NCBI GenBank assembly: GCA_965203325.1
Contig: OZ241875.1
Coordinates: forward strand, 3,968,001 to 4,032,000
From: a bacterium
Lineage (GTDB): Bacteria > UBA8248
Length of the DNA stretch: 64,000 nucleotides
Reading direction: 5' to 3'
In this document: positions 59,805 through 64,000 of the stretch, piece after piece
Layout of the letters: the number at the start of each line of letters is the position of its first letter
How positions within the stretch are numbered: the stretch's first letter is position 1
Notes under the pieces: model-generated
The model's input: only the letters and a program-made list of their open reading frames with translations
Told to the model about the DNA's origin: nothing
The model's database searches: none
Made by a program: the position numbers and the translations under genes

Positions 59805-59973
59805 GTCGGATTCTCCCGATGAACCCCCGGCCTCGGGACGCGGTGGCATACAAGTGCAGTCGCAAGACCCGCGGCGCGCCCCGGGCCGGGAGTGACATCT
59901 TACAACAACGGCGGGGTCGGGGGGTAGGGAATTTTATGACGAATCCCTTCCACATCGATCGGGTTCGACCCCG

Positions 59974-60316
59974 CCGTCATTCCGGCGAAAGCCGGAATCC
60001 ATTTTGACTTTCCAACCAGGCGGGGTGGCCATAACCTTGTTGTTGCGCGGCGTCCGGATGCGGAATTCAGAGAATTCGCCTTTCGTTTTTGTGTTCGATT
60101 CCGATCCTCCCCGCCAGGAGTAAAGACGTCCGAACGAGGAGGAGAAAAGGCAAAGGCGAAAATGGATTCCGGCTTTCGCCGGAATGACGGCAAGAGCGAA
60201 GGGCCGCATGAATGGGATTGTCCAAAAGCCTGGTGGGGCATTGTTTTACCCCCTCTCTCCAGTCGGAATCGACGCCGGAATGACGGCTGTAGGGGCGGTT
60301 CGCGAACCGCCCCTAC
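59974..60316. repeat. CGTCATTCCGGCGAAAGCCGGAATCCA inverted pair plus a GTAG REP
   Basis: Unit at about 59975-60001, its reverse complement at about 60163-60189, and a degenerate copy at about 47825. Confidence 0.8.
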
Positions 60317-60509
60317 GGAAACCCCACACCCTCCTTCTCCGCTCCCCCCAAACCCTCATTCCCCGCCCGCGTCAAACCCGCATTCATCGCTCCCGTCAAA
60401 CCCTCATTGATCAATCGCGTTTGACCCCCGCTCCCCGATAATTCATAATCGAACCATCACTGGATCATGCGACCCGTTTCAGAAGTTGCGCGCAAGTTCA
60501 AATAAAGGG

Positions 60510-60542
60510 TTGACAAAACCGGAAAACTTGCCGCACTATCAT
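60510..60542 (+). promoter_or_regulatory. Putative promoter of the hairpin array and lipoprotein gene
   Basis: TTGACA at 60510-15 followed by CACTAT (18 bp spacer) or TATCAT; an inverted TGTCAA lies at 60546-51. Confidence 0.45.
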
Positions 60543-60570
60543 ATATGTCAAGCAACAGACGTGAGCAGTA

Positions 60571-61379
60571 ATCACAGGGCCGCCCGCTCGATGCAACACT
60601 GACCCATCCGTGAAGAACGGAGAGAGCGGGAACCCACGAGAGAACCTGCTCTCACGAATTGCCTGACAGCCCGGAAGACGACGACCCAGAAGGTTCCGGG
60701 CATAAGCAGTAAAAATCACGAGGCTAGAGGACTCAACCCACGATGCAGCACGCCACAAAACCCCCTCCAGTTTCGTGATCAATAGAAGAGCAGGAAAGCG
60801 GCAGGCCCGGCGGAAGCCGGGGAAGCAGTAAATCACGAGGCCAGAGGACTCAACCCACGGCGAACCACGCCACCAATCCCCCTCCAGTCTCGTGAAGCGT
60901 AAGGCCCGGCGGCCCGCGCAGTCGGCGGCGCGCCGGGAAGAACGGCAAGCCCGGCGAAAGCCGGGAGATGAAATATCACGAGGCCAGAGGACTCAACTCA
61001 TGATGCACCACGCCACAAATCCCTCTCCAGTCTCGTGATCGATTCAAGGAAAGGCCCGGCAGGAGCCTGAAACGAAAAATTCGGCTCGGGGCCAGGAAGT
61101 TTTTTATCACGAGGCTGGAGGACTCAAACATCATGAATCCTGACCAGAATCCCACACCAGTCTCGTGGATAAGCCGGTCACCGGCCCGGGCGCGTGAGTC
61201 CGGGCCGGCGGCCGCGCGCTCCGGCCCCGGTTCGATGATTCGATGAAACGATAGAAGCCCGATAACGAAGGATAAGGAAAGTCGGAAAGTCAAAGAAAGG
61301 AGGTCAAATCCGAACACTACAGTTTTGTTGGTTGCAAAGCTCTTTAATATCACGAGACTAGGAGGACTCAAAAGTGATG
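60571..61379 (+). repeat. Array of SD/anti-SD hairpin units (ATCACGAG.CT.GAGGACTCAA ... CCTCCAGTCTCGTGA)
   Basis: Full units at 60715-60779, 60832-60895, 60975-61039 and 61106-61170; a degenerate unit at 60571-60614; a half unit at 61349-61379 that is the RBS/start of the downstream gene. Confidence 0.9.
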
Positions 61380-64000
61380 AAACTTGACAGAAACAAAATC
61401 TTTTCATTCATGCTGGCGGCTGCCTTCGCGCTGACGCTGGCGGGCTGCGGTGGCGGCGGCACTGCTACTGCGCCTGACGATGATGGCGGCACGATAGTGG
61501 AGACACCTTATAGCAAAGCGGTTGCGGCAATCGCGGCAGCCGAGACGGAGGCAGATGCGCGGGCGGCGGTCACCACGGCAGTGGCCGCCGGCATCTCGGG
61601 CACGGAGCTCCAGGACCTGAACACGAAGGTCGCCGAGCGCGTGGAGGCCCTGGCCCTGATGGCCCGGATCGATGCGCAGAAGATGGCGATGATGAACGCG
61701 GCCGGCATGATCGACACGTCCGACCTGACGACTCAGGCTGCGATCAATGCGGCCGAGGCCGCCATCGCCGTGCTGAAGAGGGCGATCGCCGCCGCGGCCG
61801 ACGTCGACGACACGTCGATGTACGACGCGCAGGTGACCGCGGCCGAGACAGACGTGGCGACCGCGCAGAGCGCTCTGGACCATGCGGCCCAGACGATGGC
61901 GCTCATGAATGCCGTCGATGACCTTCAGGCAATCGACCTGGCCGACCTGTCGACAAAGGAGAAGATCGACGCCGCCCAGGGCGCCATCGACGCGCTTCAG
62001 ACGGCGCTGGACAACGCGACAGAACTGAGCGCTGCCGAGAAGACCGCGGCCATGACCGAGCTGGGGACCGCCAATCGGGCCGTGGCGAGTGCGCAGGGCA
62101 GGTACGACACCGCAGCCCAGAAGAAGGCGCTCGCCGATGCCGTTGCCACCCTGGCCGCTCTCGACCTCGACAACCTGATGACGCAGGCGCAGATCGACGC
62201 GGCCGTGGCAGCCATCACCGGGGTTAATCTGGCTCTGCAGTCGGCGACCAATCTGACCGACGCCGAGAAGCTCGACGCCACCGTCGACGTGACGGTGGCC
62301 CAGCGGAAGGTGGACCGTGCGGAGACGGCTCTCGACGAGAATGTCGGCCGGCAGCGCATGGCGCTGATGGAAGCCGGCACGGCCCTTGCCGCCATCGACC
62401 TCGACGATCTGGACACGCCGGAAAAGATCACCGCGGCCAACGATGCCGTTAACGCGCTCAAGGCGGCGCTGGACGGGGCGACCCACCTGAGCGATTCCGA
62501 AAAGGCCACGTACCAGACCCAACTGAACGAGGCCACGGAGGACGTGAGGATGGCGCAGACCGGCATGGACCGCGCCGGTCGCATGATGGCCCAGCGCACG
62601 GCGATCACGAGTGCCGTCACGATGGCCCGCACTGCGGTCGCGGGTGTGAGCGACACCTCGACCGATAGCGAGGTTGCTGCTGCGGACGCGGCGGTTGCCG
62701 CTCTCAAGAAGGCGATCGACGATGCGGTAGACCTTCCCGAAGGCGATACCGACGTTGCCAGCGCCAGGGGAACGCTCGCCACGCTCGAGCCGCAGCTAGC
62801 CGCCGCCAAGACGAGCCGCACGGCCGCGTTGGAGGAAAAGGCCAAGGCGGATCGGGCGGCCATGGCGAAAACCGGCAAGGATCTGCACGCGGCGCTGGGG
62901 CCGCCTGCTGCGGCTGACACGACCGCGCTGGACAACATCGAGGCACTAACAGCAAGCTCCTTGGTGACATCAGGGGCGACACCAGGCCTTACGATCGACG
63001 CCGTTCAAGGAGCGGGAACGCTCCACGATACTGATGCTGCCGGAAACCCAGACGCCGTGCGCCTCAATCCTGGCGATTCCGCCGGATCGTTGGGCGGTTG
63101 GGAAGGCACGAACTATGCCCGTTCCCAGGGTAGTGGTAGCGCGATGGTCACCAACGAAGCCAGGATCTACACCAACAAGGGTCCAGGGACGACCCGGCCC
63201 TTTAGCAATACAGAGACAAACGGAAAGTACTTGCTCATAACCGCATCGGGCGCGACTAAGGGTCACGTGCTGCTGGGCGATACCACTTCGGGGCAGGAAA
63301 GCCCGGTCACGCGCGCCAGTGCTCCCGCCTTCACGCACTCGGGAACACAGACTCACCAAGTGCCCGACGAGAGCGACGCATTCTACACCAGCGGCACCTA
63401 CGACGGCGCGCCTGGGCGATTCCGTTGCGTGGACACGTCTGCTACGGATCGTTGCTCCTCGACCAACGACGGCACAGGCAGGGTGAGTGCCTTGGGTGGA
63501 ACTTGGCATTTCAAGCCCGATGCCGGCGCGATGGTGATGGAGGCCGATGCCCACTACCTGTATTACGGCTGGTGGGTGAGTAAGGACGATGAGGGCAAGC
63601 CGACGGCGGCCAGCGCGTTCGTGGGTAGATTTGGGACCCCCGGTGATGACTCCGCCACTGACGATGATGGCCTCAACGCTGGATGGACCGGTGGCTTTGA
63701 CGCTCTCACCGGCGCGGCGGCTCTTACCGGTTCGGCGACCTATTCTGGCAATGCCGCCGGCAAGTTCGCCATAAGCAACCCGTTCGACGGCACCGGCAAC
63801 GGCGGTCACTTCACGGCGGACGCCGAGTTTCAGGCGAAGTTCAGTGGTTCTTCTGGCGTCGGTATATCCGGCACCATCGACAACTTCCGGCTGAACGACG
63901 GGACCGAAGACCCGGGCTGGAGCGTGTCGCTGGGGCTCAGGGGCTTTGGCACCGACGGAGCCATCGGTGCTGCCGTGGACATTCCCACGACGACTGTTAA
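61377..64000 (+). CDS. Large surface lipoprotein (3' truncated): helical repeats plus a TbpB-like beta domain
   Basis: Own translation: MKLDRNKIFSFMLAAAFALTLAG|CGGGG lipobox and GGAGG RBS. About 5 Ala-rich ~75-aa repeats (e.g. IDLADLSTKEKIDAA), then YLYYGWW, GSATYSGNAAGK, HFTADAEFQAKF and ISGTIDNF. No stop before the window end (>874 aa). Confidence 0.88.
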   Translation, partial: MKLDRNKIFSFMLAAAFALTLAGCGGGGTATAPDDDGGTIVETPYSKAVAAIAAAETEADARAAVTTAVAAGISGTELQDLNTKVAERVEALALMARIDAQKMAMMNAAGMIDTSDLTTQAAINAAEAAIAVLKRAIAAAADVDDTSMYDAQVTAAETDVATAQSALDHAAQTMALMNAVDDLQAIDLADLSTKEKIDAAQGAIDALQTALDNATELSAAEKTAAMTELGTANRAVASAQGRYDTAAQKKALADAVATLAALDLDNLMTQAQIDAAVAAITGVNLALQSATNLTDAEKLDATVDVTVAQRKVDRAETALDENVGRQRMALMEAGTALAAIDLDDLDTPEKITAANDAVNALKAALDGATHLSDSEKATYQTQLNEATEDVRMAQTGMDRAGRMMAQRTAITSAVTMARTAVAGVSDTSTDSEVAAADAAVAALKKAIDDAVDLPEGDTDVASARGTLATLEPQLAAAKTSRTAALEEKAKADRAAMAKTGKDLHAALGPPAAADTTALDNIEALTASSLVTSGATPGLTIDAVQGAGTLHDTDAAGNPDAVRLNPGDSAGSLGGWEGTNYARSQGSGSAMVTNEARIYTNKGPGTTRPFSNTETNGKYLLITASGATKGHVLLGDTTSGQESPVTRASAPAFTHSGTQTHQVPDESDAFYTSGTYDGAPGRFRCVDTSATDRCSSTNDGTGRVSALGGTWHFKPDAGAMVMEADAHYLYYGWWVSKDDEGKPTAASAFVGRFGTPGDDSATDDDGLNAGWTGGFDALTGAAALTGSATYSGNAAGKFAISNPFDGTGNGGHFTADAEFQAKFSGSSGVGISGTIDNFRLNDGTEDPGWSVSLGLRGFGTDGAIGAAVDIPTTTV

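Follow-up and report, generated by a model that had tools for sequence, protein, structure and literature searches.

Why would a surface-lipoprotein gene be preceded by several imperfect copies of its own translation-initiation region (TIR), each joined to an arm complementary to that region? This question was raised by a tandem array of hairpins located upstream of such a gene near the end of a 64,000-nt stretch of bacterial DNA (contig OZ241875.1 of assembly GCA_965203325.1, positions 3,968,001 to 4,032,000), hereafter the window. The genome containing the window (G000; 4.39 Mb, 95.5% complete; its contig coordinates are marked C1) was analysed within a set of 23 genomes of one genus, G000 included, which were Nitrospinota-labelled metagenome-assembled genomes (MAGs) of uncultured sponge bacteria. 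In the interpretation that we prefer and consider about equally likely to be right or wrong, the array would be the core of an ~820-nt cis-acting leader that controls translation, in which the copies (decoys) and the real TIR compete for the complementary arms (anti-TIR arms).

A repeat search of the window revealed four units of ~65 nt with starts at 60715, 60832, 60975 and 61106, spaced by 117, 143 and 131 nt. Exactly these four were recovered on the + strand of the window by nhmmer and by R1, a covariance model built from 38 units (74.6-90.1 bits). Each unit consisted of a 5' arm (ATCACGAGGCyrGAGGACTCAA), a loop of ~25 nt and a 3' arm (CCTCCAGTCTCGTGA or a close variant) that included the parts CCUCC and UCUCGUGA; the repeat search returned four copies of the 5' arm as one family (D3) and four copies of the loop with the 3' arm as another (D2). 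In family D5, the 5' arms matched the real TIR at 61346-61361, and in family D8, unit 4 (61117-61144) was 82% identical to the real start (61361-61388). Therefore, the gene's Shine-Dalgarno (SD) sequence, spacer, ATG and first codons are all copied in the units. The real TIR had no 3' arm of its own, as was found both by reading the sequence and by a pattern search of the genome. The folding energies of the four units were -19.2 to -24.6 kcal/mol (z -3.2 to -4.8 versus 200 mononucleotide shuffles per unit), and the 871 nt from 60550 to 61420 folded at -325.3 kcal/mol, versus -277.5 +/- 6.9 in 20 shuffles (z -6.96).

The 3' arm was found to be the exact complement of the real TIR (TCACGAGACU-A-GGAGG) save for one bulged A, whereas with its own 5' arm it forms one G.U pair and one or two C.A or A.C mismatches. 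These mismatches of the decoy fall exactly where the real TIR would form Watson-Crick pairs. The computed duplexes of the 3' arms of units 1, 2 and 3 with the real TIR (-25.6, -27.4 and -25.4 kcal/mol) were more stable than those with their own arms (-22.5, -22.0 and -23.0 kcal/mol), whereas unit 4 favoured its own arm (-22.6 versus -19.4 kcal/mol). The real-TIR duplex was the stronger one in 29 of the 38 units (mean -23.3 versus -21.9 kcal/mol), and the 3' arms paired with the TIR at -19 to -28 kcal/mol, except for the degenerate arm of unit 2 of genome G014 (-15.2 kcal/mol). When the full leaders were folded with a partition function, the real TIR lay on the 3' arm of one unit in all of the 12 species. 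Which unit this was differed between species; in the minimum free energy (MFE) structure of G000, it was unit 2. With the best-pairing arm, the summed pairing amounted to 8.1-14.4 of 16 nt, and the mean P(unpaired) of the SD was 0.00-0.33 among these species.

An initial annotation of this DNA had listed four full units at the starts given above, GC hairpins between them (such as CCCGGCGAAAGCCGGG, which is present in the sequence), 5' arms copied from the lipoprotein's own initiation region, the lack of a 3' arm at that region and a better pairing of the 3' arms of units 2 and 3 with the real ribosome-binding site (RBS) than with their own arms. All of this agreed with our results, and the last point extended to unit 1. 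The degenerate fifth unit that it placed at 60571 was not recovered by nhmmer or by R1 (E<=1 in both searches); instead, R2, a covariance model of a structured RNA termed domain X, matched 60541-60671.

The array was confined to one locus. BLAST with the 841-nt region gave matches in 11 of the 22 other genomes of the genus, in none of 14 genomes belonging to the family but not to the genus and in none of 24 more distant genomes. R1 returned 41 matches in 12 of the 23 genomes; 38 of these lay in arrays, one array per genome ahead of the lipoprotein gene, and the number of units varied from two (G014) through three (eight genomes) to four (G000, G010 and G011). In all 12 array-bearing genomes, the array was preceded by a conserved promoter and followed by the same, essentially invariant TIR, and in 11 of them the final unit was of one kind (last type). 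Pairwise identity was 0.85-0.91 in the arms versus 0.66 in the loops and 0.41-0.53 in the flanks. In G000, the 22-nt 5'-arm pattern with up to four mismatches matched only the four units and one lone site (C1:2479327), and the 23-nt pattern of the real TIR had a single site at the same tolerance. A search of 185,579 species representatives with an 18-nt pattern containing two degenerate letters yielded 69 loci. About 59 were single matches, consistent, by our own rough estimate, with the chance expectation for a collection of that size, and loci with two or more matches occurred only in this group. A metagenome scan added one further locus with three units.

The remaining three R1 matches were weak (31-32 bits) single units, all in G014. 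Because the array is confined to one locus and these strays stand at lipoprotein genes, the element is locus-specific, lipoprotein-linked and not like repetitive extragenic palindromic (REP) sequences; a dispersed repeat of the REP or miniature inverted-repeat transposable element (MITE) type was ruled out. A CRISPR array, rejected in the initial annotation too, was likewise ruled out on the layout of the repeats, no search for cas genes having been made: the units are two-arm hairpins with conserved loops, irregular spacing and conserved GC hairpins in the spacers, and no constant repeat alternates with unique spacers of similar length. The initial annotation had recognised no known riboswitch. 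Rfam gave no match at the gathering threshold in the whole window; the best sub-threshold matches inside the array (c-di-GMP-I-GGC, 22.9 and 13.6 bits versus a gathering threshold of 59) lay over the inter-unit GC hairpins. No description of the array was found in the literature searched or in Rfam.

The G014 strays (C1:3227170, 232834 and 2488095) were diverged units located 70-110 nt upstream of a different lipoprotein-gene family. Their open reading frames were of the type MKKRAAKPPPVP followed by a stop, with GTG, or ACG in one copy, as the start, and one of the lipoprotein genes behind them appeared to be frameshifted in the signal peptide. The lone site of G000 resembled the 5' arm in 19 of 22 nt (R1 11.7 bits), had no 3' arm, was intergenic and adjoined a lower-GC segment.

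Proposed translational control by competing arms, and alternatives to it

In the mechanism that we propose, transcription from the promoter or promoters near 60420-60540 would proceed through domain X and two to four units into the lipoprotein gene. In each unit, the anti-TIR 3' arm (CCUCCAGUCUCGUGA) would be pre-paired with an imperfect decoy copy of the TIR. Because N anti-TIR arms face N+1 TIR-like arms, of which the real TIR is the best partner, the real TIR could be captured by the 3' arm of a unit, and this long-range capture would displace the decoy and turn translation OFF. The conserved mismatches on the + strand may represent a detuning of the decoys so that the real TIR wins. Since the units would fold locally during transcription, before the real TIR is made, fresh mRNA would be translatable (ON) and would then relax to OFF through strand exchange. 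The rate or direction of this exchange might be set by the number of units, by translation of the upstream open reading frames (uORFs), especially that of the last unit, and by the state of domain X; time, uORF translation, temperature and the state of domain X are the candidate triggers. The analysis showed the anatomy of the leader, its conservation and confinement to this locus, the complementarities and the predicted energetics; that array and gene are co-transcribed, how the RNA would pass kinetically from ON to OFF and what would trigger this are our inferences.

Assembled contigs from sponge and coral metatranscriptome libraries of two studies contained the array as it occurs in relatives, and one 502-nt RNA-library contig started in unit 3, included unit 4 and the TIR and reached position 61460 of the coding sequence (CDS). 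In both RNA runs, 60300-60634 had no cover; the relatives are too diverged to align there, and this gap was not used. In the near-identical run X3, no joint indicating deletion or inversion of a unit was detected in the array. Run X5 contained a single joint (61038>61096; one contig, depth 3.7), whose source may be a relative, and the joints of run X2 came from a relative whose array has another number of units. As regards the recombination-tunable device suggested in the initial annotation, copy number did vary between species (2-4), but these runs yielded no deletion joint in X3 and one low-depth joint in X5.

Several observations weigh against our interpretation. Covariation of the unit stems was not significant in the 38-unit alignment (78.9% of cells paired versus 79.0% in shuffles), and the two pairs with double changes were equalled or exceeded by 78 of 500 shuffles; this test had low power because the arms are near-invariant. 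The pairing-compatible changes were A>G opposite U, pair 21-65 of last-type units (GC, GU or AU) and a change from U-A to A-U in unit 2 of G017. The reverse-complement strand was more stable than the + strand (mean -26.1 versus -21.6 kcal/mol), the + strand folding better in just 5 of the 38 units. Hence, hairpin stability alone cannot single out the + strand, and the use of + strand G.U pairs as a mark of the functional strand failed. The anti-TIR arms lie 200-650 nt upstream of the real TIR, and pairing predicted at equilibrium across such distances is unreliable. A second leader (leader B, see below) did not serve as a source of TIR/anti-TIR covariation, since in G010, G022 and G007 its TIR varied and no change in the anti-arm compensated for this. 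Finally, the RNA support for co-transcription of the array with the CDS consists of contigs and amounts to a weak hint, because the contigs lack strand, ends and levels and DNA carry-over is possible. For the RNA switch in the lipoprotein leader that the initial annotation had proposed, the promoters, the contigs, the single locus and the folds in 12 of 12 species count in favour, and the stem covariation does not.

The same hairpins could be the precursor of small anti-TIR RNAs (sRNAs), which might be released by cleavage at, for instance, the GC hairpins between the units and would repress this mRNA or other copies of it in trans. Tandem hairpins split by GC hairpins and 3' arms complementary to the TIR over 13 nt and a bulge would suit such a precursor, and homologous anti-SD sRNA clusters such as CcsR/cuckoo are reported from elsewhere. 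However, the sole extended target in the genome was the TIR of the same transcript, so that action in trans would add little beyond action in cis. The paralogs carry another TIR, for which reason regulation of the paralogs in trans by the array was dropped. Neither a terminator-like site nor an internal promoter was detected in 60200-61600, the RNA-library contig ran unbroken from unit 3 into the CDS, and no Rfam sRNA matched; we consider this explanation quite unlikely. It is improbable as well that the units are TIR mimics that bind a protein (a repressor or chaperone of the mRNA) and serve as cis decoys or landing pads, even though the TIR block is essentially invariant far past the SD (~48 nt) and conservation of the decoy arms, with their unpaired tail GGACUCAA, is just as strong. 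The decoy SD is in a stem and not in a loop, no candidate protein was identified, and a PF02599 search of the 95.5%-complete genome, with positive control searches, found no CsrA homologue. A sponge of the CsrB/RsmZ type was rejected on this last result and because the GGA of the units is at the stem end and not in a loop. If the units were scars that repeated cargo replacement had left by duplicating the 5' end of the gene, or part of a generic mRNA-stabilising leader, the array would have no regulatory role. The units do copy the gene start including the ATG and first codons, cargo was exchanged repeatedly at the locus, and copy number varies between species. Nevertheless, a 3' arm complementary to each copy would not be gained and kept by scars, constraint on the arms far exceeds that on loops and flanks in leaders that are only ~70-80% identical between species, and the placement of the mismatches lets the real TIR out-compete the decoys, which leaves this explanation with little chance.

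Selection could also act on the small open reading frames, as tandem leader peptides (M-x-H-A-T-K/N-P-P/S-P-V-S); their translation, or stalling that depends on proline, would then be the sensor and the hairpins would be secondary. An in-frame start was present in 20 of the 27 internal units, and most of these frames ended at a stop inside the 3' arm (peptides like MQHATKPPPVS). Unit 2 of G014 retained its stop (TAA) at the cost of a stem pair, and the diverged single units of G014 held the frame with synonymous changes. The last-type uORF (33-47 codons) had a strong conserved SD and ATG in 11 of 11 genomes with a last-type unit. However, the other seven internal units had no start codon and five of the 27 carried 1-nt indels in C-runs that shift the frame relative to the stop; therefore, the peptide is unlikely to be the selected feature. 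In addition, proline codons are an automatic consequence of the anti-SD CCUCC, the variation of the long uORF sits in RNA loops, and in G013 this uORF is frameshifted at its 3' end. Although peptides as the selected feature are thus very unlikely, the last-type uORF may well be translated and could modulate the structure. Least probable of all, in our estimation, is a function at the DNA level, with the inverted repeats as recombination or protein sites, or on the opposite strand, with an antisense RNA as the active form. The greater stability of the reverse complement in 33 of 38 units and the abundance of recombinase-driven promoter inversions in the genome would be compatible with it. Nevertheless, no - strand promoter-like site was found in 60200-61600, the conserved promoter, U-run, SD, ATG and TIR complementarity are all on the + strand, and the near-identical run X3 contained no inversion or deletion joint in the array.

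A bolder form of the preferred reading, competition in cis, appears unlikely. The leader would be a multi-state device in which aptamer-like domain X and a countable set of self-neutralised anti-TIR/decoy hairpins act as a kinetic timer or ratchet that is portable across cargos. Fresh mRNA would be ON and would be shut off stepwise as uORF ribosomes or a domain X signal free the anti-TIR arms. If so, a fixed RNA device with exchangeable cargo would complement the DNA-inversion switches of the paralogs.

Leader anatomy, domain X and leader B

The features of the leader are listed in Table 1. The 12-species alignment mentioned there comprises the leaders of the 12 array-bearing genomes.

Table 1. 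Coordinates of the leader features, the lipoprotein gene and the domain X copies of G000 (window positions unless marked C1)
Feature	Position	Strand	Remarks
Upstream sigma-70-like promoter candidate, TTGACC-17-CATAAT	60421..60449	+	Sole match of the consensus scan; hexamers kept in most of 12 species
Palindrome GAAGTTGCGCGCAAGTTC adjoining the -35 box	60482..60499	.	Inverted repeat I2; conserved in the 12-species alignment, duplicated in G014
Main promoter candidate, TTGACA-18-CACTAT	60510..60539	+	Near-invariant block in 12 species
Diverged domain X copy	60541..60671	+	~130-nt structured RNA, three helical segments P1-P3; R2 23.3 bits, E 0.005
Conserved hairpin GCCCGGAA-GACGACGACCCAGAAG-GUUCCGGGC	60669..60701	+	Paired in MFE and centroid structures
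Unit 1	60715..60779	+	Decoy-TIR 5' arm, loop with 11-codon uORF (MQHATKPPPVS, stop), anti-TIR 3' arm; R1 85.4 bits
Unit 2 (type A)	60832..60895	+	No start codon, inner GGCG/CGCC mini-hairpin, best anti-TIR arm CCTCCAGTCTCGTGA; R1 87.4 bits
Unit 3	60975..61039	+	Decoy arm, 12-codon uORF (MMHHATNPSPVS, stop), anti-TIR arm; R1 90.1 bits
Unit 4 (last type)	61106..61170	+	U-run, intact GGAGGA and ATG, 3' arm CCAGTCTCGTGGAT; R1 74.6 bits
Last-unit uORF, 37 codons	61133..61246	+	Crosses the anti-TIR arm and GC hairpins
GC-rich nested hairpins after the last unit	61171..61226	+	Inverted repeat I1; stems conserved, loops variable in 11 species
Orphan perfect SD-like AAGGAGGT in purine-rich tract	61297..61304	+	No start codon behind; conserved in array leaders
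Real initiation block, 48 nt	61335..61382	+	TCACGAGACTAGGAGG, GGAGG 61361-61365, GTG 61374, ATG 61377
Surface-lipoprotein gene, 948 aa	61374..64000	+	Lipobox LTLAGC; extends 223 nt beyond the window end
Domain X copies, G000	C1:2884869-2884999, 3273070-3273210, 2418138-2418272, 1446220-1446341, 254589-254706		

The main promoter was missed by the consensus scan because its -10 box matches just 3 of 6 positions; a promoter of the same style stands ahead of stand-alone domain X copies. The palindrome is a candidate operator, where a protein may bind. In the conserved hairpin downstream of the domain X copy, the loop GAAGACGACGACCC was near-invariant in 12 species. The orphan SD-like sequence has a counterpart, AAAGGAGGTTAATCGG, in the leaders of paralogs. 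The real initiation block was essentially invariant in 12 species and unique in G000; its variation was limited to one base before TCACGAG, the A-run before GTG and a few flanking bases in G007, G022 and G014. No terminator-like sites and no - strand promoter-like sites were found in 60200-61600. A motif GAAACGATAGAAGCCCGATAACGGA, located at 61228-61270 and at orthologous positions between the GC hairpins and the purine-rich tract, occurred in one to three tandem copies depending on the species.

Upstream of the promoter, tandem 24-nt repeats (GTCAAACCCTCATTC...CGC) occupy 60325-60420 and end in a GTCAAAC-N17-GTTTGAC inverted repeat. A similar motif, GTCAAACGCTC...CGCGTTTGAC, recurs in the same genome downstream of the gene, at ~64500-64560. 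These repeats and this motif may be regulator or recombination sites. Sub-threshold matches to BjrC68, an sRNA of Bradyrhizobiaceae, were obtained at 59900-60005 and 60159-60215 (26 and 13.7 bits versus a gathering threshold of 39). They overlie REP-like GC hairpins of the GTCATTCCGGCGAAAGCCGGAATGAC type and are probably repeat elements rather than that sRNA.

Alignment of 21 copies of domain X gave a structure with three helical segments, in which helices P1 and P3 covaried. In this alignment, 93.2% of cells were paired versus 85.5% in shuffles, and 57 cells carried double changes versus 21.4; none of 500 shuffles attained either value, and slid controls gave 29-43% paired cells. The junctions GGGCUGCCCGCUGAAUACAAGACG ... 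GGAAUAGGCGGGAACCCAC were invariant, and Rfam gave no match to the domain X loci. At the other array loci, R2 matched the same relative position in 11 of 12 searched (19.8-41.6 bits), the locus of G014 being the one without a match. Most genomes of the genus contained several copies (loci L138-L157 are further examples), often after a TTGACA-N18-CACTAT promoter and ahead of genes for lipoproteins or secreted proteins. The strong copies in G000 precede a lipoprotein gene, a gene for a secreted protein and one for a sensor-like protein, and one copy stands alone with its own promoter. Domain X is a candidate for a new cis-regulatory RNA or riboswitch ahead of envelope-protein genes. Descent of the units from the closing stem of domain X was set aside as speculation, because the two share only a CUCGUGGAU-like motif and R2 did not match the units.

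Leader B is the long leader of a paralog with its ATG at C1:3272595 (C1:3272595-3273400, - strand; loci L049 and L051, with L052-L059). It was conserved over almost its full length in eight other species; in G013 and G020, its end and the downstream gene differed. It carries a decoy (ACGAUUCACGAGG), an anti-arm (CCUCCUGAAUCGU) and a TIR (AUUCAGGAGG) and, judging from the sequence, is the decoy/anti-arm design of the array in a different sequence. The core of its anti-arm, CCUCCUGAA, was invariant in nine species. The leader also contains a pair of tandem TTGACAAA..CAATAT promoters, a complete domain X whose closing stem pairs an SD-like with an anti-SD-like sequence and, besides the anti-TIR arm, a second module that is degenerate.

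The lipoprotein cargo and its paralogs

The lipoprotein (cargo) had no Pfam or PDB sequence match and at least 309 unannotated homologues. A protein-atlas lead pointed to clusters of TbpB_B_D/FHBP_C-type barrels (0.90-0.93) where the sequence searches were empty, and the AlphaFold model was too poor to use (predicted local distance difference test score, pLDDT, 53.5). A SlipAM/Slam gene (PF04575, 95.5 bits) was found at C1:1776843-1777712, ~1.2 kb from a lipoprotein paralog (1778882-1779451). Its position beside the paralog would fit a Slam-dependent surface-lipoprotein family. Of the features of Slam-dependent TbpB/fHbp-like proteins, the lipobox and SlipAM were present, and a barrel was suggested by the atlas lead.

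About ten loci of the family were counted in G000, and G012 had more. When G000 was compared with the 11 other array-bearing species, DNA homology spanned the promoter, leader, TIR and signal peptide and, in 9 of the 11, also the upstream carbamate-kinase region, and it ended sharply at 61459-61478, just past the lipobox. The array-linked proteins of the other species (519-616 aa where the reading frame was complete) matched the G000 protein in the first 32-75 residues, and their C-terminal domain was 31-42% identical, where it matched at all. Full-length homologues of the G000 protein (70-73% identical) were found elsewhere in the genome of G012. Because homology ends after the lipobox, this is a conserved expression locus with a replaced mature lipoprotein. 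As read from these comparisons, the pattern implies that cargo would have been replaced repeatedly by recombination behind the conserved leader and signal peptide.

Most paralogs had a different leader and the TIR UUCAGGAGGACUCACUAAAUG. A 16-copy family of invertible promoters (TTGACATGGCCGTGAGAGGTGTTATA) was detected in G000, most of them between 16-nt inverted repeats 179 nt apart; the copies were at 1308570, 1412011, 1713290, 1827429, 2585676, 2672684, 2765605 and nine further sites, including 2078051 (C1). At lipoprotein paralogs, these promoters adjoined a divergent tyrosine-recombinase-like gene. Seven of them lay upstream of lipoprotein paralogs; in this assembly, six faced away from the gene, and that at 2672684 faced it.

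Comparison with known systems

Sequestration of the RBS is known; a tandem array in which each blocker is pre-paired with a detuned copy of its site was not found in Rfam or in the literature searched. If our interpretation is correct, the array would be a natural case of competition-based translational control tunable by copy number and could be a template for synthetic RNA circuits. The anti-RBS thermosensor of meningococcal fHbp mRNA has two 6-nt repeats (CUGCCU) inside the reading frame near the start and no decoys (Loh et al. 2016, PMC4999090). In that system, anti-RBS repeats of the mRNA pair with the SD and limit translation; here, too, the mRNA encodes a surface lipoprotein, and several anti-RBS sequences that it carries are predicted to pair with the SD. 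Unlike the fHbp repeats, the anti-TIR arms are 15 nt long, number two to four, lie 200-650 nt upstream and are each pre-paired with a decoy TIR. An SD-complementary sequence in the same mRNA, as in an fHbp-type thermometer, was thus present, with pairing predicted in 12 of 12 species, but an anti-RBS beside the start forming a local hairpin was not found, the real TIR having no local partner.

Translational attenuation of ermC and cat relies on a short leader reading frame and on hairpins that form as alternatives, the SD segment and a segment upstream of it competing for one partner. A leader of this type encodes a single leader peptide, comprises a single set of four segments and is triggered by a drug-stalled ribosome. 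The array resembles them in that pairings of one 3' arm with its own arm and with the real TIR are mutually exclusive and, as computed, within a few kcal/mol. It differs in having several self-contained decoy/anti pairs, in the units that have no start codon and in its long range. On inspection of the sequence, an SD with a start was present in the 20 internal and 11 last-type units counted above, and was lacking in the seven startless ones. Like riboswitch platforms, the leader has a covarying 5' domain followed by SD/anti-SD alternatives; unlike them, it belongs to no Rfam family, and the putative platform is an array hundreds of nucleotides long. The conserved aptamer-like domain with covarying helices is represented by domain X, whose copy in the array leader has diverged, and the genes behind domain X encode exported proteins, lipoproteins or a sensor-like protein, or are absent.

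In the CcsR/cuckoo clusters, the motif CCUCCUCCC reportedly stands in loops, and the RNAs are said to act in trans on many mRNAs. With these clusters of Alphaproteobacteria, the array shares tandem homologous hairpins with C/U-rich anti-SD motifs. It differs from them in that the motif lies in a stem, is paired with one specific TIR copy and is located in the leader of its own gene, with no Rfam match. Vpma-type systems reportedly switch by site-specific inversion. The resemblance to Vpma of Mycoplasma agalactiae (PMC2268961), one of the variable surface-lipoprotein systems in which the 5' region is conserved, lies in a variable surface-lipoprotein family with recombinase-driven phase variation. 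The paralogs studied here have invertible promoters of their own, while the array locus combines a fixed promoter with a predicted device at the RNA level. In handling a large, fast-evolving lipoprotein family, these sponge symbionts would thus keep one RNA-controlled locus beside many recombinase-flipped promoters.

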